DNA of 64,000 bases from a virus. A program made the translations under genes and the position numbers. Position 1 is the first letter of the stretch. Each line of letters starts with the position of its first letter. The stretch is from positions 1 through 64,000 of IMG/VR virus record IMGVR_UViG_3300037042_003932. One strand, written 5' to 3'. Below, in pieces: positions 3,851-27,293 of this stretch. The notes below the pieces were generated by a model. That model made no database searches. It was not told where the DNA came from and saw nothing but the letters and a program-made list of their open reading frames with translations.

Positions 3851-4180
3851 CTAATTCGTCGGAATGGCACTAGCGCCGATCATAGCAGTTTGCGTCCAGG
3901 GAGAGGTGAAAGCTTTGTACGCTTTCCCCAACATGCCTGGTTTTTTGGTAACCTGCTCTGCAGCCTGCTGACCAGCTTGTTGAACGCCCTTATTACCGAA
4001 CATACCCCGGACAGCGCCTACTCCTTTTTGGAGGAGACCCATCCCGCCTTTGGCTATTGCGCCAATGAACGGAAGGGCTTCCTTCTGAAGAGATGCTTGT
4101 TTCGAGGTAATGAGACCGAGGGCTACGAGGGTATCCTCGTAACCCTGGTCAAAGGCTTGCTTAGATAATGCCGAGTGCAT
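3851..4180 (-). CDS. Small K-x-A-tagged glycine-rich protein (putative internal head or ejection protein)
   Basis: KQA, KQA, KEA motifs; FDQGYEDTLVALGL helix; amphipathic Gly-rich remainder. Confidence 0.55.
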   Translation of the reverse strand: MHSALSKQAFDQGYEDTLVALGLITSKQASLQKEALPFIGAIAKGGMGLLQKGVGAVRGMFGNKGVQQAGQQAAEQVTKKPGMLGKAYKAFTSPWTQTAMIGASAIPTN

Positions 4181-6912
4181 TATGCCACCAAGTGAAGCCC
4201 GATGACATTGAGTGTCATAGGCTGTCTCACGCTGATGTAAGCTTCGACACGGTCTTCGCTGATGTCGCTCTCCGCAACAGAGTCAATCGTTGCGCTGATG
4301 AGAGGAGCACCGATCTTAGCGACGTATCGAGACTTCAGGTTTGTGATCGTAGCAGTACACGCCTGATGAATGTACTGGATGGTGTCCGTATTGATGTTCC
4401 ACTTGCCCAAGAAGTCTCGAATCGTTCCGAGGAACGTCAGCGAGATGAAGTCGAGATTCTTGACAGCCATGTACTCACCCGTCTCCAAAGAAGTCACATC
4501 AGTAGTGACCTCATGGATAGTGTACGGCTGCGAGGAAGTGGTGTCTTGCACGAACACGTAAACACCACCGTTGGACAGGTCAGTGAGCTGCTCCTCGGTG
4601 AAGTAGTCACTCGCGTAGTAGACACGCGAGATACCGATACCCGAGAGGTTCGTGAAGCCTTGCTGTGAGGGCTGACCTGCCGTCTGGCCACCGACGATGC
4701 ATGACAGGTAGTAACCCGGCTGGTGTCCTGCCGTCGCTTTGACTGTGGGAGACGTCCGCGTCAGACTGCCGTCAACCAGACCCGTGACGTCGCAGGAGTG
4801 TGGGTAGCACAAGAGCGTTCGCTTCGACGCGAACCCCTGAGCAATCGACAGCATGTTGGTGACTTGCTCGGACTTGACCATGTTCCGGAGAACCCGGATG
4901 AACACCTGACCTGCGGTGACAACTCGATCCGTAGCGGCTGTCCGCTTGACGAGATGCGGAAGCTCGTTCGACACCGTGGAAGTGTTGCTGCCCTCGTTGA
5001 CCACACGCAGACGCGTGGTGCTCTCAACCAGGGAGACAACCCAAGAGTCATACGTGGTCCACGTATTCACCTCAGGGTCAGTTGGGATCTGGATGATGTC
5101 ACCCGGAACAACGTTCGCGAAGCTGGCTGTCGGAACAGTGATGACATTGTACAGAGCGTCGAGGGCCGCGTTCGCAATCGAGAACGTGGTACCTGTTCCG
5201 ACGTTGGACAACTCCACCGTCATCCTCTTCACAGCAGTAGCCCCAACGTAGATGTTGAGCTTACTGGAAGCGTTGAGGGTCAAAGTACTCGTGACGCTCG
5301 TCTCGATCTCACAGGCAGTCGCGCTGTTGACGTGCGCGACCACATACGTAGCGGTTCCACCGGCATGGATGACTACAATGTTGTCGCCAGGCAGCACACC
5401 GTCAGCCGAGAGGTCGTAATGCTGACCAGCATCAGCAGTGACCGTGAACGTTTTCGTTCCCGAGGGAGCACTGCCTACCTGTTGCGAAACGGTTCCGCCA
5501 CCGATAGCAGCCACGACCTCTTTTTGGGTCGCGAGCTCGAGGGCACCAATGACAGCCCTGAACTTCTGCTTGACGCCGTTGTCCAAGCAGTACGTGGGGT
5601 CTGCGTAGTTCTCAGCCATCAGCTTGATAGCACCGATGATCGAGGTGTCGTACGTCAGAGGGACGATAGCGTACACGTCTCTCTCGGCGCTAATGCGATC
5701 CAAGAAGTCACCGTAGCCCGCGATGTCATCCGACGCTACGCCGTAAACTCGAACCTTGGTCGTTGTGTTCTGTTTCGCAACAGACGCTCCGACGTGCAAC
5801 GGGTTACGTGCGTCGTACTTTCCGAGATACGTGGTGAGGTCGACAGTGTTCTCGATATCCGTGATGTTCTGGAGGTCTTGGCGCAGAGCCATGTACTCCA
5901 TGTAGATGTTGGCGGCAGTAATTCTTACTGTCGTGGCAACACCTTGGACCATAACGCTGTCAGAGAGGTTACCGTCTACCGTGACAATTTTGGTCTCGGA
6001 GTCGACTGAGTAATCACCCGCGTCTAGCTCCAGGTCGTCCAACTGACGCTCTATGCGCCAGAGGCGATAAGCGGCTGTCGCGCTGTTCGCAACCGCGAAA
6101 TCCACAGTGGTTCGCAAGTGACACTCGTCACGAAGACCGATGGCGCTGCCCGTGGTTGAATCGTAGCGCACTGTCCCGTCAGGAGCAGTGATAACCATGT
6201 GAGCGTTTGCCGAAGTACCGACGAGGTTCGAAGCTCCCGTAGGCTCGAGCTCGATGGCAAGAGCAACGGAAGAACCGTTCTCCACGTACTTCTTCTTCAC
6301 GATGTAGGTGCCGTTACGAGGAACTGACGCAGCGTCACTCGTGATCGTAATGGTGTCCCCGGTGTCCGTTCCAACCGAATCATGGTTGGGAGCAGAATCA
6401 GTTGACCGAAGAACGTACACGAGTTCTTTCACGGTACCGACGATGTCCGAAGTAGACGTGGGGTTTCCTTGGTTCGCGATGACCTTGTCCCCCGCTTGGA
6501 CTCCCAACCTATTCATGTTGTAGGTAATGGAAGTCACGTCGGTACCACGGAACAAGTTGTCATTGGCCCAGAACGTAGCCAAGCCATCTGCTTGAGCGAC
6601 CTCGTCGGTGATTTCCTTCATCGCAACGCGGTAGTTGTCGAAGAAGATTTTGACGCTGTCGTCTTTCAAAATGGCACCCGCTGCGAGCTCTGGGGGTGTC
6701 AGAATGTCGACGGCAGTGGTGGTAACGATTGGGTTGTTAGAATCAGCGTCACTCCCGTAGGTATCGGCGTAACAGTCCGTCTTGTCATCAAGGTAATCAA
6801 GGATTTGGTAACACGGACCAACGACGAGAACATTCAGGTCAGGGATGGTCGGAGTAACCGAAAATTCCGCGTACTCTTGGAAGACAATCGCATTTGGTCT
6901 TGTGAGGGCCAT
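4180..6912 (-). CDS. Tail sheath protein
   Basis: 910 aa; N-terminal RPNAIVFQE; C-terminal GFTNL..FTEEQLTDLSNGGVYVF..EVTTD..KNLDFIS sheath-like domain; upstream of tube. Confidence 0.8.
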   Translation of the reverse strand: MALTRPNAIVFQEYAEFSVTPTIPDLNVLVVGPCYQILDYLDDKTDCYADTYGSDADSNNPIVTTTAVDILTPPELAAGAILKDDSVKIFFDNYRVAMKEITDEVAQADGLATFWANDNLFRGTDVTSITYNMNRLGVQAGDKVIANQGNPTSTSDIVGTVKELVYVLRSTDSAPNHDSVGTDTGDTITITSDAASVPRNGTYIVKKKYVENGSSVALAIELEPTGASNLVGTSANAHMVITAPDGTVRYDSTTGSAIGLRDECHLRTTVDFAVANSATAAYRLWRIERQLDDLELDAGDYSVDSETKIVTVDGNLSDSVMVQGVATTVRITAANIYMEYMALRQDLQNITDIENTVDLTTYLGKYDARNPLHVGASVAKQNTTTKVRVYGVASDDIAGYGDFLDRISAERDVYAIVPLTYDTSIIGAIKLMAENYADPTYCLDNGVKQKFRAVIGALELATQKEVVAAIGGGTVSQQVGSAPSGTKTFTVTADAGQHYDLSADGVLPGDNIVVIHAGGTATYVVAHVNSATACEIETSVTSTLTLNASSKLNIYVGATAVKRMTVELSNVGTGTTFSIANAALDALYNVITVPTASFANVVPGDIIQIPTDPEVNTWTTYDSWVVSLVESTTRLRVVNEGSNTSTVSNELPHLVKRTAATDRVVTAGQVFIRVLRNMVKSEQVTNMLSIAQGFASKRTLLCYPHSCDVTGLVDGSLTRTSPTVKATAGHQPGYYLSCIVGGQTAGQPSQQGFTNLSGIGISRVYYASDYFTEEQLTDLSNGGVYVFVQDTTSSQPYTIHEVTTDVTSLETGEYMAVKNLDFISLTFLGTIRDFLGKWNINTDTIQYIHQACTATITNLKSRYVAKIGAPLISATIDSVAESDISEDRVEAYISVRQPMTLNVIGLHLVA

Positions 6913-6963
6913 CTTTTAGCTCCTTTACAGAGTGCACAACGATTCAGAGGAAGTATAGGGTTT

Positions 6964-7779
6964 TTACTCTCTGATTGAAGTTTGCAAAGCTACCTGTTGA
7001 TACAGGATATCCGGAGTAATACCCTGCTTCCGTATCGTCAAAGCGATGTCGTTTATCAGAGGGCCTATCGGTCGAACAGCCCAACGAAGTTCGGAGGTGA
7101 CACCAAAAGAAATAGGTGTCTTCCAAACGGTTTTGTCTTCCAGGTCGTTGTACGTCTTCCCTAAAACAGGCTCTGAGATGTCATGCAGCCCAAAGTCTTT
7201 TCGAAAGATGTCACGTGTAGCCAACAAGAAAAACCAAACAGTCTCACCAATCAGGGACGATTCTCCCGGTGTCTCGGCATCGCACTCGATCATCATCTCT
7301 GTGTTGGCAAAGCAGTAGTACCCAACGATCCCACTGGGGAGGTTGTTGCCCACGCGGTTGTCCAACGCAACTTTTTGAGCGATGGTATTCCCGTGGTCCA
7401 CGTAGATGGCAGGCTTATAGTTGTGCGTGCCCCTGTGGATATTGTATGCTGAATCGATCAAAATCTTTGTTCTGACGAGGTCTGGATTCTCTGGGTGGGG
7501 GCATTCTGCCTCAGGACGCACACTGTTGTCCCAAACCCAAGGTACCTGTTCCGTATCGACCTCGGGGTTCTCCTCGTAAGTCCCATCTTCAGGGACGTCT
7601 ATGCTTCCGCCTCCTAGAACACTTTGGGCCAACGCGCTAGCACCAAAGCGTTGGCGTATCGCGAGCATGAACAAGCCCACGATAGCCAGAGGCGTACCTG
7701 GGGCTACACGACGCGACTCTTCTTCTGCTCGTGGAAGCGCACCGTCTGCATAGTTCTTGTTTGTTACTATGAGTGACAT
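6964..7779 (-). CDS. Putative tail completion/terminator protein
   Basis: Position between neck genes and sheath; start placed at ATG 7779 (MSLIV), coupled to the upstream stop. Confidence 0.45.
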   Translation of the reverse strand: MSLIVTNKNYADGALPRAEEESRRVAPGTPLAIVGLFMLAIRQRFGASALAQSVLGGGSIDVPEDGTYEENPEVDTEQVPWVWDNSVRPEAECPHPENPDLVRTKILIDSAYNIHRGTHNYKPAIYVDHGNTIAQKVALDNRVGNNLPSGIVGYYCFANTEMMIECDAETPGESSLIGETVWFFLLATRDIFRKDFGLHDISEPVLGKTYNDLEDKTVWKTPISFGVTSELRWAVRPIGPLINDIALTIRKQGITPDILYQQVALQTSIRE

Positions 7780-8711
7780 TACGGAGTAACCCACCAACAT
7801 GGCTCATGCCACGGATCGACGTTTATCTCGTACTCAACAGCACTCGGACTCAGTTCACTGACGGACAACTCTTGGTGTACGTCTGTATCTTGAATGGTAG
7901 TCGGAAGAACTCTCGTGACGATGAACCGTTTACCACTCCTGAGAAACACTACGACATCGTCTGCATCCATGAGTGGTATATTCGCCATGATGACCTGGCG
8001 TTCTTTGGTCTCTACTAGACCTTGTATCTTCGTCGCGGTGTTCACTGCGTTCGAAGTTAGAATCGCGTATCCGTAGTGGGGAGTCTCGTAACCGCCTACG
8101 ATGGTAGTTCCGTAACATGACGGACACGACGTACGTGTACTCTTGTTGGCGATAGACACGCACAAAGGACATCGAGCTCCCCAGCTCTTCTTCTTCAAGA
8201 TGGCACACTCTAAACCCACAGCCTTGAGCGCTATCAGAGCATCCCGCACAAGCTTTCTAGCGATGCCTGCACGTCGTTGATCCATCCAGGGCTCAAGGTT
8301 CTTTATTACGCTCGTTATAAGCGTTGGATTACCTGGAGGGTCTTCTGGTGGATCAGGAGGGTCTGGCGGGAGCAACACTTCTATCTTGTAGTTGAGAGAT
8401 ACCTTGAGCGAGTAGAGACTCTGCTGCGTGTTGTCGACTGATGCACCAAAACTCTCATCTACGTAGTGGTAGACGTTGTCCAAGTCAGAAGCCAACAGTG
8501 TCCAAGGACCAGAAGGACCTGAAGACTTGTAAATGTTGAACCAGTAATCGGGTTCCCCCTGAGGAACGTTACGAAGTACCCACTGAACGAACACCCGCCT
8601 CGGCCATATCGGGTATACGCGTGTGACCTCGATCTCGAGGACACTCGACGTCTTGATAGGGGGTTTTTGAACCCCCTGTCTCATTGACAGAGGGACGGTG
8701 TTGTCCGTCAT
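7779..8711 (-). CDS. Putative neck/head-closure protein with zinc-binding motif
   Basis: FN3-like N-part, CPLC..CPSCYGT, C-terminal KRFIVTRV..HQEL head-closure-like strand; synteny. Confidence 0.5.
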   Translation of the reverse strand: MTDNTVPLSMRQGVQKPPIKTSSVLEIEVTRVYPIWPRRVFVQWVLRNVPQGEPDYWFNIYKSSGPSGPWTLLASDLDNVYHYVDESFGASVDNTQQSLYSLKVSLNYKIEVLLPPDPPDPPEDPPGNPTLITSVIKNLEPWMDQRRAGIARKLVRDALIALKAVGLECAILKKKSWGARCPLCVSIANKSTRTSCPSCYGTTIVGGYETPHYGYAILTSNAVNTATKIQGLVETKERQVIMANIPLMDADDVVVFLRSGKRFIVTRVLPTTIQDTDVHQELSVSELSPSAVEYEINVDPWHEPCWWVTP

Positions 8712-9175
8712 ATCGTGTACCTGCCAATATAGCGGTAGCCCGAGGATATACGCCCGTAAACGGATTCCATGTTGACCTGAGTCTTGATATTCCGCGCATG
8801 AATTTCAAACTCTTGTTGGAGTCTGTCAGCCCACGCAGAGTATTGCGCTTGTTTCTCATCGAGGTTAACAGGCGCAATATTTCCGTCTTGAGAGCGTAAC
8901 TCGTTCCGGTTCTGCCGAATACCTTCTGACCGTAACAGAATGGCGCACACACCGCAGAGCAGCATGTACTCATTCAAAGCTGTTGCAGGTTCCCAGGTAA
9001 CGGGAGTCATCGCGTTGTACTTTGATGTAGCAAAACGGATAGCTCTGTTAATGTCCGCGTCTGTGAACTCGATACCGCTTGGCAGAATGATGTTGTGCTC
9101 TGGTGTGTCACGCAGGAACCACCGTATATCTTCGGTCGTTAACGGCAACTGATTCTGCTGTAGCGTTACGGTCAT
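8708..9175 (-). CDS. Putative head-tail adaptor protein
   Basis: 155 aa helical protein (IRWFLRD..EFTDADINRAI); synteny between capsid and tail genes. Confidence 0.5.
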   Translation of the reverse strand: MTVTLQQNQLPLTTEDIRWFLRDTPEHNIILPSGIEFTDADINRAIRFATSKYNAMTPVTWEPATALNEYMLLCGVCAILLRSEGIRQNRNELRSQDGNIAPVNLDEKQAQYSAWADRLQQEFEIHARNIKTQVNMESVYGRISSGYRYIGRYTI

Positions 9176-9181
9176 GGTACC

Positions 9182-10431: not shown

Positions 10432-10444
10432 TTTACCTCGATCT

Positions 10445-10714: not shown

Positions 10715-10812
10715 TATGCAGTCCTTCCAGTCATCCGTGGTATAAATGTACCACCAAAATGATAGGGTAGTCCTGCGCTACTTGATAGTTTTGGTTGCGG
10801 GGGTGCTGGGGT

Positions 10813-11205: not shown

Positions 11206-11226
11206 AGCAGCCTCCTTAGATAGGGT

Positions 11227-11280
11227 GTGACCCCAGCCAGCTAGGGGGAGCAAAGACGCAAACTACCTAGCTGGGGTCAC
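11227..11280. other. Stem-loop immediately downstream of the major capsid gene
   Basis: GTGACCCCAGC (11227-11237) / GCTGGGGTCAC (11270-11280), perfect 11-bp inverted repeat. Confidence 0.6.
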
Positions 11281-11293
11281 AGGAACGCTGTCA

Positions 11294-12214
11294 TCACGGG
11301 AAGATGATCTGTTGCATGGATAGAGAGTTACCCACGCCGATTCCGAGCGCCTCGTACGTCCAGAACATGATCGTGTCTGCCTTCTGCTCGATGTACAGAG
11401 TCGCATCTTGCAGGAGGTAGAAGTTTCCGAGGAAGTTGTTCGGAGCCTGCGGTGCGAAGATGAACGCGTGATTGATCGAGTAGACCTGGGGCTTGACCGT
11501 GGTCACCGTGGGGATGCCCCACAGCTTCTGGGAGGACTCGATGCCCTCGTCGAAGTGCCGCTTCGCGATGTCGTGACCTACGGAGGTCGCCGGGAGATCC
11601 AACGCGTCGAGGTACCGGGCCTTCGCCATGAGCATCTTGCCGACAGGGCGACGACGCTCGAGCATGGCACGCATGGCCAGCTTGAAGGTGCCGCTCTGGA
11701 ACGCGCCGTTCGTCTGCTGGACCGAGGGGTTCGCCGTGGTGATGGCGAGGATGGTCTCGTAGAACTTGCGGTCCTCTTCGTCAGCCATGTCCTTCACGGA
11801 GTTGTCCGACAGGATCTGCCGGATGTCGCTCGTGTAGGTCATGAGCTCGAACTTCGACTTTGTGAACCGCTGGCTCTCGATCTTGCCGAACTTCACGGCG
11901 TAGCGCTTGCCACGGAACCAGGTGCGCTGTCCGGTGCCCTGGAAGTTGACGAAGGTAGCAACCGAATCGGGCTCCTTGTCGATGATCTTGATCGGCTGGT
12001 CGCTGTCGAGCGTGCGGTCGATTTGGTCCTCAGTGATGCCCTGGGGAACAATGATCTCACGGACGGCTGCTTCTTGACGGAGCTTCTCACGAATGAAAGC
12101 ACCGCCCTCGGCCTGAGCTTCCTTGACCTGGCCGCTTTCGATTTTGCGGATGAAATTGCTGTTGAGGAACTGCGCCGTGATGTGCGGGTTCTCAACCGGG
12201 TAACTGGTGCTCAT
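11294..12214 (-). CDS. Major capsid protein
   Basis: 306 aa; strongest G/C third-position bias in the region, suggesting high expression; follows decoration and protease genes; HK97-like size and layout. Confidence 0.7.
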   Translation of the reverse strand: MSTSYPVENPHITAQFLNSNFIRKIESGQVKEAQAEGGAFIREKLRQEAAVREIIVPQGITEDQIDRTLDSDQPIKIIDKEPDSVATFVNFQGTGQRTWFRGKRYAVKFGKIESQRFTKSKFELMTYTSDIRQILSDNSVKDMADEEDRKFYETILAITTANPSVQQTNGAFQSGTFKLAMRAMLERRRPVGKMLMAKARYLDALDLPATSVGHDIAKRHFDEGIESSQKLWGIPTVTTVKPQVYSINHAFIFAPQAPNNFLGNFYLLQDATLYIEQKADTIMFWTYEALGIGVGNSLSMQQIIFP

Positions 12215-13710: not shown

Positions 13711-14295
13711 TTAACGGCTCATCTGGGACAGAATGACATCGACTTCCTGCGCACCCTTGTAGAACTCTTGGGCAGCTTTCTCACGCACGTCTTCCAGCGC
13801 AGCATTCTGCCCGGCGTTGTATTGCTCGGCAGCGACCTTCTCCATAGCCTGGGCGTAACCGGCTTCCATCGCGACTTTTGTCATAGTGTCGTTGTAGCCT
13901 TTCTCGGCTGCTTGCTGAAGCATGGATTGCTCTTCTGCCGCGAGCTTCTCCTGCGAGGGGACTTCCGGCTGCACCGATGCGATCTTGGACGTCTGGCGAG
14001 CCCAAGTCTCAGCAGCCGCGTCGGCGAAAGCAGCTCCCATCTGGCGCATGTGAATGACCTCGGCGGTCTTCTCGTCTTCAGCGAGTCTTTGCGCCTCTTT
14101 GATGAGGGCTTCGACTGGGTCAGACGTGTTGGCTGACGCGGTCTTCTCTTGCGCGACAACCTGCTTTAGCGAAGTGATTAGGGCCTCTTGCGCTGCTGCG
14201 GTAGCGGTTTTCGTGGACGCTTGCGAGGTAGTATCGCTGGCGGTCTTCTCGGTGGATGTCCCGCTAATCTGACTCATCAGTGTCTCGTAGTTCAT
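13711..14295 (-). CDS. Putative scaffold/inner-head protein
   Basis: Ala/Glu/Gln-rich helical protein; 11 of its 13 Lys lie in K-x-A; start ATG 14295 with GAGG RBS. Confidence 0.65.
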   Translation of the reverse strand: MNYETLMSQISGTSTEKTASDTTSQASTKTATAAAQEALITSLKQVVAQEKTASANTSDPVEALIKEAQRLAEDEKTAEVIHMRQMGAAFADAAAETWARQTSKIASVQPEVPSQEKLAAEEQSMLQQAAEKGYNDTMTKVAMEAGYAQAMEKVAAEQYNAGQNAALEDVREKAAQEFYKGAQEVDVILSQMSR

Positions 14296-14360
14296 GATTT
14301 CCTCACATTGGTTAGGTGCCAACCCGAATACTAGGGCGGCGACTGGTTCCTATCAAGGGA

Positions 14361-16412
14361 TTAACCCTCGACGATTAGTTCACCGATACGTTCAGCAATT
14401 TTCTCGATGTCCAGCTTTGGTAACAACACCGTGTCTGTTGGTTGGGGTAAGAGATCAGCCAAAATAGAAGACAATTTTGGAGTGCCAGAAGCCATCCGAT
14501 TCAACCATTTGGTCGCAGCGTCAGTTCCTTGAGCTATGTACTTGGCACCTGGTTCAAAGATTTGTTTGTTTGCTGCTCTACCTGCCAAGCTGCCACCCAA
14601 AGCATTAAGCCCCGTAACCCCAATGGCAGTACTCGCCAATGGATGCTCTTGAGTGAAAGCACCGGCTTGGTCAAGAAGACGCCTACCTAATGGAAGACCA
14701 GGATGCCCTACAGGTTCTCCTCGGGCTAACCGTGACTTGTAGTCACTGCTGAGAAGAGTCATCAGCCCCAAAGTTCCAAACAGAGGAAGAGCCAAAGAAG
14801 ACATCTTTGACATCTCAGTTACCGTGGAGATTGGAACTCCTTGGTCAGTCATGTAGTGAGTACCCATATCCGGGAGATGCGTCGCACCAGCAGTAGCGAG
14901 TGTTCCTCCGACCAAAGGCTTTAACGCACCTAGACCACGGCGACTCAAACCAGAACCCAAAACCTTGTACGTGCCACCCAACAACGCAGCGCCGCCGACT
15001 GTCTTGTACACGTTGCGCTTTGCCACTTCGTCGTGTGACCTAACTGCAGCACCCCGCGTGGTTTGGTACCGAGTACCTGTCGCGGGGTCAGTAACAGTCA
15101 GTGGTGTTGAAAACTCACCTTCGTCTCTGAACTTCTCCGGGATTATGTTTCGTTTGAGGTAGTCGCCCATACCCGAAGTCTTCTCAAGGTAAGGAGAGAG
15201 TGCCTCTAGTATCCGAGGGTCTACAGCATCTCTATGAAAGTTGAGTGCGTCTGACCCCTCAAACGAATCCAGGATTTGCGGGTGCTCTGCGATAAGGTCC
15301 ATAATCGGACCCTGCAATCCCACGGACCTATCGACCCAACTCTTCTCTGGATGATGCTTTGGATATGACTTGAAGAAGATGAGCTTCATGAGCTCTGGGG
15401 TCTTCAGCATCATTCCGCCAGAGAAAGCAGATGACAAAGTCTTCTGCAGTGGGTAGTGCGAAAGGTCATGCAGGGTCTCGTCGGGGATTACTGGAACGTT
15501 TCCGCCCATGTCTAGAACTTGGTTACGCATTCGCTGAATGTTACAAAGTTCTGTGGGGTCTACGTTCTCAGTCTTAGCGTCTAACGGAATCCCTTGAACG
15601 ACCTTGTCGATGACTGCGATCTTGTGAGCGGCAAGCTTACGCTCGTCCATAGCTTCAAGATATTCACCCGCCTTTACGCCGGAAAGGATTTCATACGGCG
15701 TAGCGTTAGCGACTTTTTTCATCATGTATGCCGTTGGGTCCGCAGGTCGGATAACCCAAGAGATGTCAAAGAACTTGGGGCTAGGGTTGAGTGCTGCTAC
15801 CTTAACACCATTGATTACGTCCCGCATTTGGAAGCGGAGGTGGTCACAGTACTGAGCTCTAGTAGGCGCTCTGTTTCCACAAATCGTGCAAACGTCCCAA
15901 GCTACCTTGGTCCCCATACTGACCGGGGGGAACTCACCGTTCTTGATTCTCTCAGCGAGGTCAGGGGCCTTCGCGTTGTCGAGATCAATCAGGAGCTCGA
16001 CTCGGTGCATCGTGTCGTTCCAGAATGACTTGACGACTTTTCCGACTCGCTTCTCTGGGTCTTTGTTGACGTGATGTCTGTAGTTGTTTCCGTACAGCTC
16101 AAACGTATGATGCCAATTCGATAACGTTTCGGCTTGGCTGATCCACGGAGGACTCGCCATTGGCTTATATGGGGCATTGGGGAATCCATCTCCGTTACGG
16201 TTCTCAGCGTAATGCTCCCAGTCGCTCACAGCCAAAACATAAACAAAGCTGTGACCTGGAATAGGCTGGATCGTCTTGAAGTACTCGCTCCCTACACTGG
16301 CGTGCTTCGTGATGTTTTCGTAGCAAGCCCTGTTATTGGCCCACAGCATCACCGGCTGAACCGTAGCTTCTCCAGTAGGAAAGTACTCGTCGAGATGGAT
16401 TATTTTTTCCAT
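14361..16412 (-). CDS. Prohead maturation protease-like protein with long C-terminal extension
   Basis: NRNGDGF, YRHH, VELL, PVSMG..CTICGN..CDHL, FFDISWV..PAD motifs of HK97/herpes-fold phage proteases; start ATG 16412. Confidence 0.65.
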   Translation of the reverse strand: MEKIIHLDEYFPTGEATVQPVMLWANNRACYENITKHASVGSEYFKTIQPIPGHSFVYVLAVSDWEHYAENRNGDGFPNAPYKPMASPPWISQAETLSNWHHTFELYGNNYRHHVNKDPEKRVGKVVKSFWNDTMHRVELLIDLDNAKAPDLAERIKNGEFPPVSMGTKVAWDVCTICGNRAPTRAQYCDHLRFQMRDVINGVKVAALNPSPKFFDISWVIRPADPTAYMMKKVANATPYEILSGVKAGEYLEAMDERKLAAHKIAVIDKVVQGIPLDAKTENVDPTELCNIQRMRNQVLDMGGNVPVIPDETLHDLSHYPLQKTLSSAFSGGMMLKTPELMKLIFFKSYPKHHPEKSWVDRSVGLQGPIMDLIAEHPQILDSFEGSDALNFHRDAVDPRILEALSPYLEKTSGMGDYLKRNIIPEKFRDEGEFSTPLTVTDPATGTRYQTTRGAAVRSHDEVAKRNVYKTVGGAALLGGTYKVLGSGLSRRGLGALKPLVGGTLATAGATHLPDMGTHYMTDQGVPISTVTEMSKMSSLALPLFGTLGLMTLLSSDYKSRLARGEPVGHPGLPLGRRLLDQAGAFTQEHPLASTAIGVTGLNALGGSLAGRAANKQIFEPGAKYIAQGTDAATKWLNRMASGTPKLSSILADLLPQPTDTVLLPKLDIEKIAERIGELIVEG

Positions 16413-16419
16413 TAAGTCC

Positions 16420-16830
16420 TCAGAGAACCCCGCGAAGGATCTCCATAAAAACTTCACGCCCGTAGGTACGCATCGACGCCAGCTTGAGACGGGCAGTATC
16501 CGACACGGTGTCGTTGTGCAGCGCTTGAGTGAGCGCGTCATCCACAGTCAAAGCTGTAGCGATTTTGAGCTGCTCGACGTTACTCAGAGGCTCTTGGCGT
16601 TTGAACGCAGCCATCTTCGTAACGAACGAAGCAACCCCAACAGCCCCCGTATGCCCATGAATGCGAGCTTCCGTACGGATAGCATCCGTAACAACGTGAG
16701 CGATTTTGGGGTTCTCGTATTCTACCGCGATGCACTGCTCTTCCGAGGCTGTCTTGACCGCAACCTCTTCATAGAGGCCATGGCTCTTAGCCGCGTTCGA
16801 GATCTCGTGCGTAAAGATTTCAAGGTTCAT
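16420..16830 (-). CDS. K-x-A-rich head-associated protein
   Basis: KTA, KIA, KMA, KIA, KLA in 136 aa. Confidence 0.6.
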   Translation of the reverse strand: MNLEIFTHEISNAAKSHGLYEEVAVKTASEEQCIAVEYENPKIAHVVTDAIRTEARIHGHTGAVGVASFVTKMAAFKRQEPLSNVEQLKIATALTVDDALTQALHNDTVSDTARLKLASMRTYGREVFMEILRGVL

Positions 16831-18674: not shown

Positions 18675-18683
18675 GCGTGCCTC

Positions 18684-19397: not shown

Positions 19398-22039
19398 TGC
19401 TGGTTCATCATTCCTTGTTGCGACATCTGGTTCGGACTCACAGCGTTACGGTTGATCTTGATGACGAGGTCACCGAGACCCTTAAACACCGTGCGAAGAC
19501 GCTCTTCAAGTGTCGTGTACTCCAGGTCACCAATCATCTGCTTGACCTCGGCCTCTTGCATCCAAAGGGTCAGCAAGATACGCCCGAGGTTGTCCACAGC
19601 CTTTTCGAGGTTGGGTACGTACGTCGAGATGATGTCGTGGAGAACTGGAGACGCCGCCATCATCGACATCGTAGCGAGGTCAAAGACACCTGCGTTGCCG
19701 AGGTCGCCAGCGGACTCAAGCATGTTGGGATTGATTTGGTCCGCAACAGCCTGTGGGTTCATGTTTCCCTCGGGCATGACAGGCTGCGGCGGGGGCTCGG
19801 GCTCTGGCTCGGGCTCTGGCGCAAGCATCCGAGCAGCAGTAGCCGGGGAAGCTTCAGCTCCAGCCGGGATGACGCCGCCAGTCACTTGCGTGATTTGGTT
19901 CGCCCGGTTCTGTATCTGCTGAAGGAGCTGAACCAGACGGTTGTTCTGGTCGGACTCCTGCTGCAGGGCTTGCTGTTGCTGCTGCATCTGATCTTGCAGC
20001 TGCTGCATACGGACCTGGTTCTCCTGAGTCAGCTTGTCCACAGCCTCGGCAATCGCGAGGTCCGTAGGAGACATCGGAGATGGCGCGGGCTGCTGCGGCA
20101 TCATACCGCCCATCATCGAGGGGTCCATTCCCTGCTGCATCGGGTCTCCCATCGGAGAACCGCCGCCACCCTCGGGAGACATCTGGGGAGCAGGACCCTG
20201 CGCCGGTCCCTGACCTTGCATCGGGCCTTCCATCCCAGGCTGAGCGACCTTCATCAAAATCTCGTTGATGGACGCCAGCTTAGAAGTGGGAAGGACGTAC
20301 ATAAACGGGAACCGCGTACGTTCTACTTCCACAAGAATCCCAGCAGCGTCCGAAACCGAGATGTTGTAGTCCGTCGCGATCTTCTCGACCGCCTTGGGGT
20401 AGTGGAGAGCGCATGGGTGATTCCCGACCCAGTACTCATCAACACCAGCCTTTTTGACTTCGATGGGGTCAGCCTTCGCGTCTTGCAACTTCGCGTCGAG
20501 CCAATGCGTGACCATCTTGGGATCGTCGGTGATGTTGCTCAGGCTATGGTTGCGCAGGTCGTACTTGTCCTTCTCATGGACATTCGTCTGAATGGCAACC
20601 CACTTGGCATCTTTGGGAATGAGGTACGTGTCGTTGGCCGCGTTCGTGATGGACTCACGTTTGGTGTTGTCGTCGATGATGTACTTAGTGCCATCCGAGT
20701 AATCTGAAATGATCTTCCTTACGCCTTTGGTATCCACGATGGAATGAATCCAAAAAGGCTTCGTGGCCTGCGGCTGTTTACCCGGACCCGCACAGAGGAA
20801 GAAACCGTAGTCATGGACAGATGGGGATGACCCACGCGCATTCCCGTGGATAATCGTCTTGATCCACTTGTAGTTGTTCAGCTCAGGGTCATCATCTTGG
20901 ATGAGCTCGCCCATAACGTGTGTATTGCACCACACCTTCTTACCGTCTTTGTTGACGATAAGATACTCAGTGGCGTTACGGCGAGGACTTGAACCGTATT
21001 CGCTGTAGTAGTCACTACTATAAACTAAACCGCCGCTCGAACCCTTGGGCTTAGGAATGATGTAGTAGATGTCCGGGGGAGCATCCATAAAGTAGAGGCG
21101 ATAGAACCCTGCGGTGTGACCAGGCTCAGTGAGCTTTAGGTCATGCTCAATCTTGAGAGCTACCTTATCAATGCCTCTACGTGTGTCTTGGACTGCAATG
21201 CCGTTTCGCAGAATCCCTTGGTACGCCTGTGCCGACTTAACGCCAAAAGCTTCTTTGAGTTCTGCAGCCGTTGCGGTCTTAGTGAACACCCTCACAACGC
21301 CAGGAGCATTGAGCGCAGCCGTCTTCGTTCGAGCCACATCTTGCGCAGCGACACGGGCATTACCGCGCTTGAACGCGTTTATAATGGACGTAGACCCGTG
21401 GAAGTGTGCCAGCTTAGCGAGGAGAACAGGGTGTTTCTCAAACGCTAGCTTTACGCCGTCAATAACGGACTTCGGCGCAGCGTCTCCGATGAACTCCAAA
21501 AACCGAGGATGGACTTCGTAGTTATTGGACTCCGCTTCCTTGAACATGGCCTTTGCGTGGAAGTCAAAGCTCATATCCGAAGCTAGACCCACACGACCCG
21601 AAGAAGTGAACGGGGGCATAACCACGTTTCGGATATCCACGTCCCGAGGAACGCCCTGTGGGATATCAGAAGGCTGGCCCATCTCTTCGAGAGACATCTT
21701 CGATACTTCCTCCAACCACTCTTTATTCATGGGAAGGAAGATATTCAGGTCTTTGAAGTAGAACACATCCAGCGGCTTCAGCTGGCTATCGCTCATAACG
21801 ACTGGAATGTAGATTGGCTTATTATCTTGCAGGAAGATAAAGGCACCAACTCCGCGTCCCTTTGTGGCGTTAGTCTCCAGAAGTTTGAAAGTTACAACCT
21901 GTTGCGCCATATCCGGGAATTTGGCGAACATCACGTTGTAAGCCATGCTCGCAAACTTTTGCTTAAAGATCTCTTCCGCTTGTTCAGCGGAAGGAAGCTG
22001 ACCATACGCTTGAACATCCGGGGACATAGGTGTTGGCAT
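19394..22039 (-). CDS. Large putative inner-head protein with Q/P/M-rich C-terminal region
   Basis: 881 aa; multiple K-x-A; low-complexity Q/P/M/G region and coiled coil. Confidence 0.6.
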   Translation of the reverse strand: MPTPMSPDVQAYGQLPSAEQAEEIFKQKFASMAYNVMFAKFPDMAQQVVTFKLLETNATKGRGVGAFIFLQDNKPIYIPVVMSDSQLKPLDVFYFKDLNIFLPMNKEWLEEVSKMSLEEMGQPSDIPQGVPRDVDIRNVVMPPFTSSGRVGLASDMSFDFHAKAMFKEAESNNYEVHPRFLEFIGDAAPKSVIDGVKLAFEKHPVLLAKLAHFHGSTSIINAFKRGNARVAAQDVARTKTAALNAPGVVRVFTKTATAAELKEAFGVKSAQAYQGILRNGIAVQDTRRGIDKVALKIEHDLKLTEPGHTAGFYRLYFMDAPPDIYYIIPKPKGSSGGLVYSSDYYSEYGSSPRRNATEYLIVNKDGKKVWCNTHVMGELIQDDDPELNNYKWIKTIIHGNARGSSPSVHDYGFFLCAGPGKQPQATKPFWIHSIVDTKGVRKIISDYSDGTKYIIDDNTKRESITNAANDTYLIPKDAKWVAIQTNVHEKDKYDLRNHSLSNITDDPKMVTHWLDAKLQDAKADPIEVKKAGVDEYWVGNHPCALHYPKAVEKIATDYNISVSDAAGILVEVERTRFPFMYVLPTSKLASINEILMKVAQPGMEGPMQGQGPAQGPAPQMSPEGGGGSPMGDPMQQGMDPSMMGGMMPQQPAPSPMSPTDLAIAEAVDKLTQENQVRMQQLQDQMQQQQQALQQESDQNNRLVQLLQQIQNRANQITQVTGGVIPAGAEASPATAARMLAPEPEPEPEPPPQPVMPEGNMNPQAVADQINPNMLESAGDLGNAGVFDLATMSMMAASPVLHDIISTYVPNLEKAVDNLGRILLTLWMQEAEVKQMIGDLEYTTLEERLRTVFKGLGDLVIKINRNAVSPNQMSQQGMMNQQ

Positions 22040-22151
22040 TGTTTGAACCTGTCCTGTTAACGACGACCAAGTTCTCCGAACACGAAAACACGTGCTCTCT
22101 GGTTTCGTCTTGAATTATATGGCAAGAATGCGTTGAGGGAAGAACAGAATG

Positions 22152-23069
22152 TCAGTGAACGGACTTGAGAGCATTCATGAGGATGCTTGTGGCCACATCA
22201 ACGACCTCGGCCTGGCTCGCCTGCTTCTGCTGTTGGGCATGCAGGTTGATCAGAATCTGTCGGCCTTCCTCGGTTGAGAGGAGTTGCTCGGCAGTCTTCT
22301 TCACATCAGCCTGGAGCTCGTTATGAACCGCAGGTTGAGGAGCGGCTGGGTGCTTCTTCAGCGGGACCGGCTGGGTCGTGGTCTGGGTCGTGCTGCCCTG
22401 GGAGACAACCGTTCCGCCGAGGTTCGCGTTGGTGGTCAGGTCCATACGGCCACCGCCCTGCGGGAGAACGCCGTCTTTCGACAGCTTCTGCAGGAACGAG
22501 GAGATCTTCACGTCAGCAAGGGTCGTGGGAGCTGGGGAGTCTTGCGTACCCGGCTGGTCCGGACGGACAGTCTGAGACCCGACTTCGCCGCCGCTGGTGT
22601 CCATGGAAGACGAACCCTTCGGACCCGTGACAGCCGAAGATGGATTCTTCTCGGCGTCAGTCTCGCCCTCGATGAAGACCTGCTCATGCGTCGCGGGACC
22701 CGAACCCGGATTCGTGGTGCCAGCCTCGAGAGCAGCCTTGTAGATCAGTCGCTCAGCGGTGGCATAAGCCAGCTTCACGATGTCCAGGTTCTGATCGGCG
22801 GCGACCTTGTTCAGGTTCTCGTCCATCGCACTGCCGGTCTTGGCAGCAATCGCCTGAGCGACTTCGACGAGCTTCTGAAGGATCGGAGCGACTTCGTTGG
22901 CACTCATTCCGGTTTCGTCGGTGACTTCTGGAGCTTCCTCTTCCGGAACCTCGTCAGCCACAGCGTCAGCGACCTCATTGGCCACCTTAACCGACGAATA
23001 GTGCACCAGGCCATTGCGCATCAGGCCAAAATTCAGACCGCGAACGTGTGATCTTTTGAAAAGTCCCAT
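22152..23069 (-). CDS. K-x-A-rich disordered head protein
   Basis: AAAGGAG RBS before ATG 23069 (MGLFKRS); KVA, KVA, KLA, KAA, KTA, KQA. Confidence 0.6.
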   Translation of the reverse strand: MGLFKRSHVRGLNFGLMRNGLVHYSSVKVANEVADAVADEVPEEEAPEVTDETGMSANEVAPILQKLVEVAQAIAAKTGSAMDENLNKVAADQNLDIVKLAYATAERLIYKAALEAGTTNPGSGPATHEQVFIEGETDAEKNPSSAVTGPKGSSSMDTSGGEVGSQTVRPDQPGTQDSPAPTTLADVKISSFLQKLSKDGVLPQGGGRMDLTTNANLGGTVVSQGSTTQTTTQPVPLKKHPAAPQPAVHNELQADVKKTAEQLLSTEEGRQILINLHAQQQKQASQAEVVDVATSILMNALKSVH

Positions 23070-23091
23070 GATTTTGACTCCTTTTAGTCCG

Positions 23092-23403
23092 TTACTCGCT
23101 AAGCGCGCCGTAGATGTCCTCGTTCGGGTCACCTGCGTACGCCTCGGGCGATACTTCTTGGTTGTTGGCGTTAGGGTCTTGGGGCATGTTTTCGTAGTCG
23201 CCCTCAACCAAACTATTCACGTCTGGCTGAGCGGGTGCACCAGGGGTAGGACCCATCAGTTGAACTCCGGTGGGGTTACCTTCGGCTTCGTCTGCCAAGT
23301 CATTACCCATGGCTTCAGCTGTTGGTTCGTCATAACCGGCAGTCTTTAGAGCTGTCGTTGCCCCGTAGGCATATGCCTGTTTTAGTTGGGAGACAGTCAA
23401 CAT
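23092..23403 (-). CDS. Small acidic K-x-A protein
   Basis: AGGAGG RBS before ATG 23403; KQAYAYGATTALKTAG. Confidence 0.6.
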   Translation of the reverse strand: MLTVSQLKQAYAYGATTALKTAGYDEPTAEAMGNDLADEAEGNPTGVQLMGPTPGAPAQPDVNSLVEGDYENMPQDPNANNQEVSPEAYAGDPNEDIYGALSE

Positions 23404-23450
23404 AGAAACATTTCCTCCTGGCGTACCTTTCACAAGTGTACGACTAAATT

Positions 23451-24035
23451 CTAAAATTGTCGTCCCTGATATTGAGGTTGCGGTTGTCCCTGTGGGTTAC
23501 GTTGTTGGAACCGTTGATACGGATTCTGCGGGTCCGATTGACCAAAAGTTCCCGTAGCTTTCTGAGCCACGTTTACAGCTCCACGCCCTATACGATCCAA
23601 CACGGGATACGCTACCATACTTCCAACCATACCTAATGGCCGGTATAGAGCGTTAGTCCCTAGCGTACCTAATGCTAAGCCACCAATGCTCTGCGCTTTG
23701 TCTGGAGCATCACTCTTCATAGTCTGGTAACCCATATAGGCTGGCAGACCGTAGAGCAACGCTTTATCCAACATCTTAGGAGCTTTCATTCCTTGATGCA
23801 TCATACTGTTGCTCTTGAACGCGTTACCAGACATAATCTCTTTTCCAAAGTTTATAGGCTCCCCTATCATAAACTTCCTAAGAGTTGTGTGCCATGGCTG
23901 CTTGGCACCGGCCTCAACAAGACTCTTACCTGCCTGTCCTGCTCTCGCCACAGCACCTGGAGGAATAGCCAAAGCCATCTTGGATAGCCCTAGAGATTGA
24001 TAGACTTCGTTCCAGCCTTCTTCGAACGGCGTCAT
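23451..24035 (-). CDS. Putative ejection/membrane-active head protein
   Basis: FEEGWNEVYQSLGLSKMA leader; Gly-rich hydrophobic helices; Q-rich tail. Confidence 0.55.
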   Translation of the reverse strand: MTPFEEGWNEVYQSLGLSKMALAIPPGAVARAGQAGKSLVEAGAKQPWHTTLRKFMIGEPINFGKEIMSGNAFKSNSMMHQGMKAPKMLDKALLYGLPAYMGYQTMKSDAPDKAQSIGGLALGTLGTNALYRPLGMVGSMVAYPVLDRIGRGAVNVAQKATGTFGQSDPQNPYQRFQQRNPQGQPQPQYQGRQF

Positions 24036-24036
24036 G

Positions 24037-25842
24037 CTAGTACTTACCCTTTTCGCCTTTGCCGAACTCAGTACCTAAAACATACGCTGGAACAGGGCTA
24101 GTGCCGTGAACATTCGAAATTTCTCCGAAGTGAGCCGCGTGTTGCAACGTAGTCTTCAAGTTTCGATGGGCTAGCCGCGCCATCCAGTCCGGGTTGTACA
24201 GCGGTGCTCGTGTAGCGGGCTTCATAACAAACTCAACTTCAGGTGCTCGTGGGGCGATGAACACGTCTTTGACCCCATGGGATTTTAAAAAATCAACTAT
24301 GGAGGGAGTAACGCGCATACCAACGGAGAAATGAAAATACTCTTTACCGAGAGTTTCTCCTAGAGCTTCACTCAGCTTGATTTGTTTTATCCCGCTAGCC
24401 AAAACAGATTTCAGGTTGTTGTAGTTTACAACGTCACCCTTGAAAAAGTTATTTCCTTCGTCGTTCAGGATACGGACATGATTCAACTCACCTAGAGCAA
24501 GAAGCTCAAAGTGACGTTGGTCCAGGTTTATCCCTTGGTTTTTGTAGATGTCTCGGAGGGTATTTACCATGTAAACCCGTCCCGCTCCGAGACCCTTGTA
24601 CTTCACAACCTCGTCGGGCTTCGGGATACCGTCGCCTAACATGTCACCTTTTTCCACAGTGTCGCCTACGCGAACTTTTATCCCCATGTTCGGAGACACA
24701 TAGTGCGACGTATCTTCTACGTGCACAAAGTGTCCTCCTTGAGGTGCTTTGGACACCTTGGATACAGTTCCGTTAATTGAAGCTAGTGTGGCTTTGTTCA
24801 AAAACAGATTGGGCGACTCAACCGCTTGTCTGAAGCCCTCTAACCCTTGTAGCTGCAGACGCCCAGACGCCGCAGTAGTACCGCCGTGCTTTGCGGACAG
24901 AGCGAGCTGCGTCAAAGGTTCTGCCATCGCCTGAGCTGAACGAACGCCAATGTTCGTTCCAATGTCATGCATCCGACCCTTCTCGTTCAAACCCTGACAA
25001 TGCTGGCACACACCGTCGCCCGCTTCACAAGTCATAGGAGAACGGACAAGAATCTTCCCTACGACAGTTCGAGCTAATGAGGGTTGGATGGCTGGCGTAA
25101 TCAGCGTATTACGGCGGAAAGGACCGGTGTCCCTAGCGAGGTAACGGTCAATCACATCAGAGTCCTTGGGGTCCATGAGGATTCCGTTGTGCGTCCCACA
25201 GTCTTGTTCAGTAATGAGAATGTTGTTCATATTACTGACAAGAATCTTGGACAACTCACCCGGCTCCGAGACCGAAGTACTGGACTTGATAGTATCAAGA
25301 ATGGCTTCGCTACTCACTACCCAGTTATCCGCAGGGGTCATCCCCTCAGAGTAGGACCGACGAATGAGCCAAGGCTCTACGCGACCACGACCATCACGTC
25401 CGTAAACTGGGGACGTAACGATCTTTGCGTACTGAAGCTTGTTTCCACGAGCACCCGAGGACACCTGGGCAGTCATAGACCCAGGATGACGCATGGCCAA
25501 GTCTGTCATCTCAGGGTGAACTCCCTCGAGGAGTTTACGACGCTCGTCGTCTGTCTTGGCTTTGTTCATCTTTGCCGCGACAGGATTCAGTATCAGGTCT
25601 CGAGCTTTGTAATCAGGTTCAAGGTCATCAAGACCGACAGAGAGACCTTCTGTAGTTGCAAGATGGTCTCCCAAGCGCTTAACGTTACCAACGATCTTCG
25701 CGTATGTCTGTGGATCGGTCCTAGAGAGCCGTGTTAACGTACTCTTAAGATCTTTTCCAGACACAGCTCCGTCAAACTTGTAACCCTCAGGCATGAGGTT
25801 ATTGATGAGGTGCTGCCCAAAGGGTTGTCCAACGGTAGTCAT
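24037..25842 (-). CDS. rpoC: Multisubunit RNA polymerase beta' subunit, C-terminal half
   Basis: SGARG, EQDCGT, RSPMTC..GVCQHC zinc site, IGVRSAQAMAEPLTQL..H trigger loop, WMARLAH. Confidence 0.9.
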   Translation of the reverse strand: MTTVGQPFGQHLINNLMPEGYKFDGAVSGKDLKSTLTRLSRTDPQTYAKIVGNVKRLGDHLATTEGLSVGLDDLEPDYKARDLILNPVAAKMNKAKTDDERRKLLEGVHPEMTDLAMRHPGSMTAQVSSGARGNKLQYAKIVTSPVYGRDGRGRVEPWLIRRSYSEGMTPADNWVVSSEAILDTIKSSTSVSEPGELSKILVSNMNNILITEQDCGTHNGILMDPKDSDVIDRYLARDTGPFRRNTLITPAIQPSLARTVVGKILVRSPMTCEAGDGVCQHCQGLNEKGRMHDIGTNIGVRSAQAMAEPLTQLALSAKHGGTTAASGRLQLQGLEGFRQAVESPNLFLNKATLASINGTVSKVSKAPQGGHFVHVEDTSHYVSPNMGIKVRVGDTVEKGDMLGDGIPKPDEVVKYKGLGAGRVYMVNTLRDIYKNQGINLDQRHFELLALGELNHVRILNDEGNNFFKGDVVNYNNLKSVLASGIKQIKLSEALGETLGKEYFHFSVGMRVTPSIVDFLKSHGVKDVFIAPRAPEVEFVMKPATRAPLYNPDWMARLAHRNLKTTLQHAAHFGEISNVHGTSPVPAYVLGTEFGKGEKGKY

Positions 25843-27293
25843 TAGCCGTTACCGCCAGGAATGATCGGAGTTGTACCGCTCACGGCACCAACCGAGAACG
25901 GGTTACCCCAATCGGTAGGTCTCTCAAGATGCTTGTCTACGGGATTACCTGCGACAGAGGTTACAGGGTTCACGTTGGTGTAATCCGAATCCATTGCGTT
26001 GAGCGCTTTTGCCAACTGCCCGGCACCAGTGTTCTCGTCTGAAGCAGGCATCGGTCTTCCGGATTCAGAAGTGGATGCGTCACCTGATTGACCTTGTCCT
26101 GCGGATTCGGCTGCACTCTCGGCACCTAGTTTCCGCAACATGTCGAAGTAACCTCTCCAATAAAATGACGACGCTACTTTTTCAGAGATGTTTTTCATTA
26201 ACCACTTGTCCTTGTTGGTTCGAACCAGAGCATACCGCTCTTTTTTAGCGTCGCCTACTGTTCGTTCGAATTTTAGACTATCCGGTTTCGAGGACAAAAT
26301 AGAGATTGGTTCTTTGTGTTTGATCTCTACCGAGCCACGTCCGTACCCCGTGTGTATTTGGGCAGGCCCGCTTTCGCCAAAGGTAAGAGCATAATTTGAC
26401 GTGTGCGTAGGCGTCTGGATAGCGAGTAGAGGCTTCCCTCCTACTTCAGGGAACTTAGCTTTAGGTATTGCCCAAGAGTGGGCATGGTCCGTGTCAGGAT
26501 CGATCAAACGTAAATCCCAATGAGGACCCGCCTTAACAGCGTCATGCTGTTGTACTGACATCGTCCAGTCAGCATCCCCTAAAGTAGGTAGGTCGTGTGT
26601 CTTCTTGTCCCGTGGAATCCCAGGGGCGAACTCAGACGACATCAGACGCTTAGGGTTAGCGTCCATCGCTGGGATGAAATCATTGAGCTCGTGTCGTTTG
26701 AGAGGTACTGATGCTAATCCAGTTTCTGTATTCAGTGAATACAACCCCCGAATGGAGCCTTTGTCATGCAACGTAGATGTATCGAGTCTGACTTGCGAAG
26801 ACTTAGGAGGAGCCATGACCAACTTAGGGTTAGTCACTGTGAGCGGCTTCAACTTTTCTTCAAGAAGCTTTCGAGCTACATCCGTAGGCATGCTGTCGTT
26901 GAGGTGCCCCCGGATATAGAACCCCCGACCCCCTGAGAACGCTAGCGACGTTCGGGCTACTTCGGGAATCCCTTTCAACAGCGTATCGATTTGTTTTACG
27001 ATTGGCTTGAGTTCGTGTGTGGTTACTTCTTTGCCTGGATCGACATCCACCCACACAACGTTTGTTTCTTTCCCTATCGTCGGATGGAACTCAACAGCCC
27101 GCTGGTCCACCAGCCTCTTGAGCTGCGCTTGGTTGTTGAGCTTGATAGGGTTGCCGTCGAGATTCCTACGGTAAAAAGGTTTCCCCTCTTCGTGCTGCAC
27201 GAGCGTTAGGGCTCCGTCTCCATAAAAATTACGGAGTAAAGAGTCCTGGATATGCTGCGTGGTGTAGTAGTCTACGACGTCTTGTTTGTTCAC
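25842..27293 (-). CDS. ligD: LigD-like AEP polymerase + 3'-phosphoesterase (no ligase domain)
   Basis: AEP motifs VEFHP, VDVDPG, FSGGRG, RLD, YSL..SVPL; phosphoesterase motifs VQQHDA..HWDLRL, SWAIPK, LAIQTPTH..Y, GYGRG. Confidence 0.8.
   Translation of the reverse strand: MNKQDVVDYYTTQHIQDSLLRNFYGDGALTLVQHEEGKPFYRRNLDGNPIKLNNQAQLKRLVDQRAVEFHPTIGKETNVVWVDVDPGKEVTTHELKPIVKQIDTLLKGIPEVARTSLAFSGGRGFYIRGHLNDSMPTDVARKLLEEKLKPLTVTNPKLVMAPPKSSQVRLDTSTLHDKGSIRGLYSLNTETGLASVPLKRHELNDFIPAMDANPKRLMSSEFAPGIPRDKKTHDLPTLGDADWTMSVQQHDAVKAGPHWDLRLIDPDTDHAHSWAIPKAKFPEVGGKPLLAIQTPTHTSNYALTFGESGPAQIHTGYGRGSVEIKHKEPISILSSKPDSLKFERTVGDAKKERYALVRTNKDKWLMKNISEKVASSFYWRGYFDMLRKLGAESAAESAGQGQSGDASTSESGRPMPASDENTGAGQLAKALNAMDSDYTNVNPVTSVAGNPVDKHLERPTDWGNPFSVGAVSGTTPIIPGGNG

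Follow-up and report, generated by a model that had tools for sequence, protein, structure and literature searches.

We analysed a window of 64,000 nucleotides, positions 1 to 64,000 of the IMG/VR virus record IMGVR_UViG_3300037042_003932 (i.e. the first 64 kb of a single viral contig of 143,878 bp with an estimated completeness of 80%), in which several proteins carry a short shared peptide, here called the tag, beside a K-x-A tripeptide. Every gene discussed is encoded on the minus strand. Read in that direction, the portal gene is followed by a fused gene for the beta and beta'N parts of RNA polymerase (RNAP), a LigD-like gene, the gene for RNAP beta'C and two small genes (named by their coordinates 23451 and 23092). 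Beyond these lie one further gene, a run of head-module genes, a probable prohead protease, a scaffold-like gene and the major capsid protein, and a third small gene (3851) sits between those for the sheath and the tube (Table 1). Two genes code for the multisubunit RNAP, with beta+beta'N fused in one and beta'C in the other, and they lie within the block of head genes between portal and protease. The nearest cultured phage is Salmonella phage Arash, whose capsid protein is 42% identical and whose gene order is syntenic. Relatives closer than Arash are known as IMG/VR contigs only, of which eight were compared whole and a ninth in part. An initial annotation of the window had proposed that the shared peptide is a portable signal which loads cargo into proheads and is then removed by the protease.

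The tag has the consensus [FY]-x-x-G-[YWF]-x-[DE]-x-L-x-x-L-G-h. The six peptides quoted in the initial annotation all translate at the places given for them, i.e. in the 3851, 23451 and 23092 genes, in the tail of the LigD-like gene and as two tandem units in the scaffold-like gene. Across 17 distinct instances, position 1 is Phe or Tyr and position 4 is Gly without exception (17/17 each), position 5 is aromatic in 15/17, and Leu at positions 9 (14/17) and 12 (16/17) precedes a Gly at position 13 (16/17). The motif is retained in orthologues at 35-60% identity, with the neighbouring sequence drifting around it. When the proteome of the whole 143.9-kb genome (46.7k residues) was scanned with the strict pattern [FY]..G[YWF]...[LIVMFY]..[LIVMA]G, three matches were found against 0.17 expected, and these are the 3851 gene, the 23451 gene and the LigD tail; only one of 2000 shuffles (0.05%) reached three. 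The families also detect one another. With a profile made from the 23451 orthologues alone, the 3851 tag reaches 15.5 bits (7.3 for the best shuffled sequence), and with one made from the LigD tails alone it reaches 12.5 bits (5.8 for the best shuffled sequence). A profile scan of this and related genomes had been suggested at the outset as a check on the motif, and a pooled profile run over nine phage genomes separates the true instances, at 16-25 bits, from everything else, at 9 bits or below. The motif is real and beyond chance. Three points would suit a chance resemblance of ordinary helix C-caps (h-x-x-h-G-h) selected after the fact: helices are commonly capped by L-x-x-L-G-h, the definition of the motif was post hoc, and the copies in the scaffold-like protein are weak. 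Against this stand the excess of strict matches, the detection across families and the positions that are invariant in orthologues and in the 145-cluster family of the 23451 protein (below), so that chance is effectively refuted and we regard it as a very improbable explanation.

The most telling result is the coupling of the tag to K-x-A. For 11 of the 13 N-terminal tags a K-x-A lies 0-3 residues downstream, whereas the LigD-like protein, with its tag in the C-terminal tail, has its sole K-x-A among 483 residues 3-7 residues upstream of that tag (three in the window). The site therefore falls between tag and body at either end of a protein, and the adjacency described in the initial annotation is both confirmed and directional. 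This K-V-A is invariant in 15 further LigD relatives, in which the spacing between tag and site varies. The tag is conserved, modular and terminal, with K-x-A between it and the body in nearly every instance.

K-x-A is in turn a conserved tripeptide specific to the head module. Thirteen head-module proteins contain 71 copies where 24 are expected, a three-fold enrichment, whereas about 20,000 residues of other conserved proteins contain 83 against 86 expected, and the reversed control A-x-K stands at expectation in the head-module proteins (1.08). Across five diverged genomes, the head-module proteins hold 26 invariant K-x-A sites, compared with 0-1 for each of eight control tripeptides. One of these lies in the N-terminal arm of the major capsid protein (Table 1), and an invariant K-V-A directly follows the catalytic domain of the protease, which recalls the C-terminal self-processing of T4 gp21 and SPN3US gp245. 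In Arash, K-x-A[AS] is likewise frequent in the head proteins gp220, gp222, gp223 and gp225. The pattern is what a P3-x-P1 code of a head protease would look like, analogous to the [LI]-x-E of T4 and the [SA]-x-E of phiKZ, and from this enrichment and conservation we infer that K-x-A is the cut site of the head protease. Separately, a 334-aa protein far from the head module (53741-54745, minus strand) has K-x-A at 11 places, of which five are invariant across five genomes, and is unique in this among the non-head proteins; it has no match in Pfam or NCBIfam and may be another protease substrate or a packaged protein.

A tag so tightly coupled to K-x-A, often at the fixed spacing G-x2-K-x-A, might alternatively be a docking or enhancer element for the protease, in which case the K-x-A beside it would be cut preferentially or early and no capsid addressing would be involved. 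About 20 of the 26 conserved K-x-A sites have no tag nearby, however, and an exosite role is unlikely for that reason; the LigD spacing is variable with the site upstream, and one tagged protein, in the relative G002, has no K-x-A to be enhanced. We consider this explanation improbable.

Table 1. Positions of the tagged genes, their tags and K-x-A sites, and the surrounding head- and tail-module genes in the 64,000-nucleotide window.
Feature	Coordinates	Strand	Description
3851 gene	3851..4180	-	109 aa; between sheath and tube genes; N-terminal tag, Gly/Ala/Lys-rich body
3851 tag FDQGYEDTLVALGL	4112..4153	-	residues 10-23; 24.2 bits; flanking KQA at 4154-4162 and 4094-4102
23451 gene	23451..24035	-	194 aa; directly after RNAP beta'C; N-terminal tag, K19-M-A21, variable linker, glycine-zipper-like body
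23451 tag FEEGWNEVYQSLGL	23985..24026	-	residues 4-17; then K-M-A at 23973-23981
23092 gene	23092..23403	-	103 aa from Met11; downstream of RNAP beta'C; variant tag KQA-YAYGATTALKTAGY-D, tag at 23332-23373, KQA at 23374-23382
LigD-like gene	25842..27293	-	483 residues; PF21686 and PF13298; primase-polymerase and phosphoesterase domains, no ligase domain
LigD tag YWRGYFDMLRKLGA	26121..26162	-	residues 378-391; invariant K-V-A at 26172-26180
LigD C-terminal tail module	25842..26171	-	tag, acidic linker, conserved end
Scaffold-like gene	13711..14322	-	helical protein, called from position and composition; between protease and capsid genes; orthologues in 8 relatives; three invariant K-x-A sites
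Scaffold-like repeats	13774..13908	-	two 13-residue tandem repeats AEKGYNDTMTKVA, MEAGYAQAMEKVA (13831-13908) and a third, degenerate unit ending REKA
Major capsid protein	11294..12214	-	306 residues
Capsid K31-E-A33	12116..12124	-	N-terminal arm; invariant in five genomes; also in Arash gp226
Probable prohead protease	14361..16412	-	phrog_18299 head maturation protease, E 2e-8; syntenic with Arash gp222; after the run of head-module genes
Portal	32295..34034	-	
RNAP beta/beta'N, fused	27290..31648	-	
RNAP beta'C	24037..25842	-	
Further gene	22152..23069	-	after the small genes, before the run of head-module genes
Sheath	4180..6912	-	
Tube	3081..3836	-	

The 23451 protein belongs to a large family, with 145 cluster representatives in an exhaustive profile search. 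G7, G16, K19 and A21 are invariant in 20 sequences and are followed by an indel-rich, low-confidence linker. The exact arrangement G-x8-G-x2-K-x-A is found near the N terminus in 80 of the 144 representatives examined, with the first Gly at residue 5-9 in most. The [YW] position of the motif as first reported, [FY]xxG[YW]xxxhxxhG, is variable across this wider family. A few members have lost the helix and kept K-x-A, and two carry the scaffold-repeat form GY-x-D-x-M-E-K-I-A instead of L-x-x-L-G.

The 3851 gene keeps its position in 11 IMG/VR relatives, all with an N-terminal motif and with K7, G13 and Y14 invariant. Near relatives of this sheath-tube gene have the motif as initially described, and farther ones have a variant, K-x-A-h-x-x-G-x3-A-[LM]-x3-G-Y, that is also found in the 23092 family. 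In the 23092 protein it takes the form K-x-A-Y-A-x-G-x3-A-L-x3-G-[YV]-D, and K8, A10, Y11, A12, G14, A18, L19 and G23 are invariant in six orthologues. A profile of the variant scores 40-45 bits on its own training instances, against a shuffled maximum of 9.9, and 20.7 bits on the sole instance outside the training set, a protein of the relative G001. The 23092 instance is thus a significant one by its own profile, and it is also significant by hhalign against the 3851 family (E 1.8e-4). The Pfam family DUF6127 was considered as a match for the variant tag and rejected: its best scores were 18.8 bits (one G001 protein) and E 0.21 (one member of the 23092 family) against a curated cut-off of 27 bits, and the window's own genome has no match to it. 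Further N-terminally tagged proteins lie in lineage-specific regions, namely a 69-aa basic protein in G002 and three proteins in G001. Pfam, PHROGs and NCBIfam gave no match for the tagged proteins, and ESM Atlas returned only unnamed viral clusters with weak glycine-zipper and tape-measure structural hints. Outside the window, the same genome encodes two tandem paralogues (138087-138635 and 138690-139190, both minus strand) with N termini of the form AYEYGVKLAY..K-x-A, the variant tag and glycine-zipper C-terminal parts. They adjoin a 730-aa, K-x-A-rich multi-module protein (135989-138181), and the matching position in G001 is occupied by a 176-aa protein with a clear variant tag.

These families raise the main rival explanation, in which the tag is the N-terminal helical element of one old, diverged family of small glycine-zipper internal or ejection proteins, serving oligomerisation or a membrane role in the mature protein with no addressing; the gene fusion in LigD would then be incidental, and composition would account for the resemblance to the scaffold. 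The three small tagged families are built alike, as tag, K-x-A, Gly-rich or hydrophobic body and Q/P/Y-rich end, and the further paralogues at 138087-139190, the glycine-zipper hints, a tag that is the best-conserved part of the 23451 family (144 representatives) and a similarity to the scaffold that stays within shuffled scores all fit this explanation. The families are also linked by hhalign, weakly and across the N-terminal stretch only (E 7e-4 and 2e-4). This similarity ends at the tag, however, with no alignment between the bodies. Tag and body are parted by an invariant K-x-A and a variable linker, an enzyme carries the tag at a C-terminal junction with the site on the other side, and some members have no helix yet keep K-x-A. 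We judge common descent with no addressing to be possible but unlikely. The carriers had initially been called otherwise unrelated. Their bodies differ and include an enzyme, glycine-rich small proteins and lineage-specific proteins; for the three small glycine-rich proteins, which may be distant paralogues, the description is overstated.

In one subclade of the LigD relatives the tail reads PKVAQFLKQAFDQGY-x-DMLRKLGAE, which is nearly the N terminus of the 3851 protein (KQAFDQGY, as in 3851). Gene context was examined for one of the distant members of the 23451 family, in the GC-rich relative L061, which has the same gene order and no LigD; a 98-aa gene starting with the tag sits between its two RNAP genes. 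This gene (L061:7906-8202) aligns to residues 374-463 of the LigD-like protein with E 6e-8 and starts at a point equivalent to the K-V-A junction. It follows from this free-standing tagged gene that the LigD enzyme of the window's clade is fused to a pre-existing tagged small protein. In four diverged relatives the LigD-like protein has an extra N-terminal extension (MPYSSPAQRAAVWA...) that is absent in the window.

The C-terminal half of the scaffold-like protein contains one to three 13-residue units of the form A-E-Q-G-Y-x-D-T-M-x-K-V-A. The GY-containing copies number from one to three between genomes, which suggests that the repeat array expands and contracts; three near-identical tandem repeats (AAEQGYIDTMQKV) are seen in the orthologues G001 92232-92834 and G007 30801-31445. 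The 3851-family profile gives the two scaffold copies of G004 10.8 and 8.1 bits, where one shuffle gave 4.7. When a profile of the scaffold repeat was run over 7328 open reading frames, its two best non-scaffold matches, and six of its top 17 matches, were tagged proteins. The tandem motif of the initial annotation is present as repeats, in a degenerate form whose bit scores are not above those of shuffled sequences, and the link between repeat and tag is suggestive. Since the scaffold-like protein carries these related repeats, the tag may imitate a scaffold unit. A more elaborate proposal would make the tag a copy of the scaffold's 13-residue repeat, by which cargo imitates a scaffold unit; the two small tagged proteins coded on either side of RNAP beta'C, namely the 23451 protein and the LigD tail (fused or free-standing), would then be adaptors that carry the untagged virion RNAP and, by fusion, a LigD-like end-healing enzyme into the capsid, where the K-x-A-cutting protease would release them. 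We regard this proposal as rather doubtful.

Taken together, we favour, with moderate confidence, the interpretation that the tag is a protease-removed docking tag for the prohead core, comparable with the capsid-targeting sequence (CTS) of T4. A short portable tag would bring proteins into the assembling core, probably by binding the scaffold, and the head-maturation protease would then cut it from the body at the adjoining K-x-A. The packaged cargo would comprise the three small glycine-rich families, the LigD-like enzyme via its fused tail and the lineage-specific small proteins. For the removable targeting tag proposed initially, the predictions that can be tested at the level of sequence hold, i.e. 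a terminal motif, K-x-A between motif and body, a head-specific K-x-A, modularity and scaffold repeats.

Several observations weigh against a docking tag of this kind. Only 3-5 proteins per genome carry the tag, compared with at least 12 head-module proteins with conserved K-x-A; the RNAP subunits, as candidate virion proteins, are untagged, and the 3851 gene is placed in the tail module. Two N-terminal tags have no K-x-A within three residues, the G002 69-aa protein having none at all and one G001 protein having its first 15 residues downstream. The bit scores of the tags with the scaffold-repeat profile fall inside the shuffled range. The short helix of the initial annotation is plausible, but its amphipathic character is not established: the hydrophobic moment exceeds that of at least 98% of shuffles in only 6 of the 17 instances (about a third), and the amphipathic-helix idea was dropped on that account. 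An AlphaFold2 model from the 23451 alignment makes residues 3-14 helical, with coil from 15 to 25, through K19-A21, at a low confidence (mean predicted local distance difference test, pLDDT, 54). A tblastn search for homologues in cultured phages, covering 50,697 phage records, gave no match with any of five queries, for which the LigD-like protein, the 23451 protein and three of the distant members of its family were used, and Arash, the only relative with virion mass spectrometry (PMC10585845), has no tag match and no homologue of the tagged proteins. A profile of the repeat of the Arash scaffold gp223 matched no other Arash protein, so that no parallel case of a scaffold repeat on cargo is found there. 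A search for related loci with P0165 found none.

The assignment of the protease is itself a modest one and counts on the same side. It draws on synteny and on a single match in PHROGs, with a weak hhalign alignment besides, and the genome has no match to Pfam Peptidase_S77. The hhalign match, to T4 gp21 (E 0.039), covers gp21 residues 86-141 and pairs Ser165 of the query with Ser140 of gp21. We take His85 and Ser140 of gp21 to be catalytic, and on that basis the match may be read as the His-Ser catalytic stretch. Sequence searches of the PDB with the protease gave no match, and an AlphaFold2 model from a five-sequence alignment has a pLDDT of 32. The longest open reading frame of the gene (14361-16541, minus strand) begins 43 codons upstream of a conserved Met (Met44; MEKIIHLDEYF). 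The orthologues start at this Met, which makes 16412 the probable true start.

The closest precedent for a removable docking tag is the T4 CTS, carried by IPI, IPII, IPIII and Alt, which has affinity for the scaffolding core and is removed after assembly by the prohead protease gp21 (PMC9026906, PMC7411985; capsid targeting in T4 is also described in PMC3012670). Both are 10-20-residue peptides common to proteins with different bodies, mostly N-terminal and directly followed by a three-residue site of the protease type, and T4 Alt also has a C-terminal propeptide. The two differ in that the site here is K-x-A rather than [LI]-x-E, with no h-x-E pattern accompanying the tag as the gp21 rule would have it, and in that the tag is unrelated in sequence, has two invariant glycines, resembles repeats of the scaffold-like protein and is used once at the junction between an enzyme and a C-terminal tail. 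The phage itself is not T4-like, having no Peptidase_S77 match, a capsid protein of 306 residues and multisubunit RNAP genes inside the head module. A short terminal helical peptide suffices to place cargo inside an HK97-fold shell in two further systems, the C-terminal coat-binding helix-turn-helix of the P22 scaffolding protein, which is part of the scaffold, and the cargo-loading peptides of encapsulins. Neither is known to be removed by a protease or to resemble the present tag in sequence.

In phiKZ, 201phi2-1 and SPN3US, head and ejection propeptides are cut at [SA]-x-E by gp175/gp245 and have been proposed to target proteins to the prohead (PMC7411985, PMC10052503, PMC9026906). All three package a multisubunit RNAP in the virion of a large phage and cut many of their head proteins at a P3-x-P1 motif, with several redundant sites and with a C-terminal propeptide on the protease; the phage studied here appears to resemble them in these respects. 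Their propeptides are instead mostly long (111-254 residues), have another cleavage motif and no detectable homology to the proteins described here, and no shared short motif is described for them in the same three papers.

In the virion proteome of Arash, RNAP beta and beta' rank among the most abundant members (PMC10585845), which suggests a virion RNAP outside the phiKZ group. From this proteome and from the position of the genes, the phages of the present clade appear to package a multisubunit RNAP. In L006, the closest IMG/VR relative (beta'C 81% identical), the fused RNAP gene encodes 2296 aa, against 1452 in the window. Both this gene (L006:1663-8553) and the prohead protease open reading frame (L006:19501-21804) are interrupted by long, intein-like insertions with homing-endonuclease-like parts, one of which adjoins the beta' metal-binding DxDGD motif and apparently splits it (NGDYDGD...DT).

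The logic of loading a protein into the head and then clipping it is known from T4; what differs here is the tag sequence, its pairing with K-x-A and the lineage. The tag might be of use as a second, orthogonal signal for packing foreign proteins into phage heads, within the practical limit that the clade has no known cultured member. If the docking interpretation is correct, the T4 rule would extend to an unrelated, uncultured phage lineage with genomes of approximately 145-180 kb and with a different cut code, and a tag that looks derived from scaffold repeats would provide a mechanism for the origin of such signals. Should the tag truly be a scaffold mimic, the packaged, probably injected protein set of the whole lineage would become readable from sequence by tag and K-x-A together. 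More generally, a docking tag would mark proteins that are packaged and probably injected, including the LigD-like enzyme, which has no ligase domain, and the small basic proteins that are lineage-specific; the latter could be counter-defence cargo like the internal proteins of T4.

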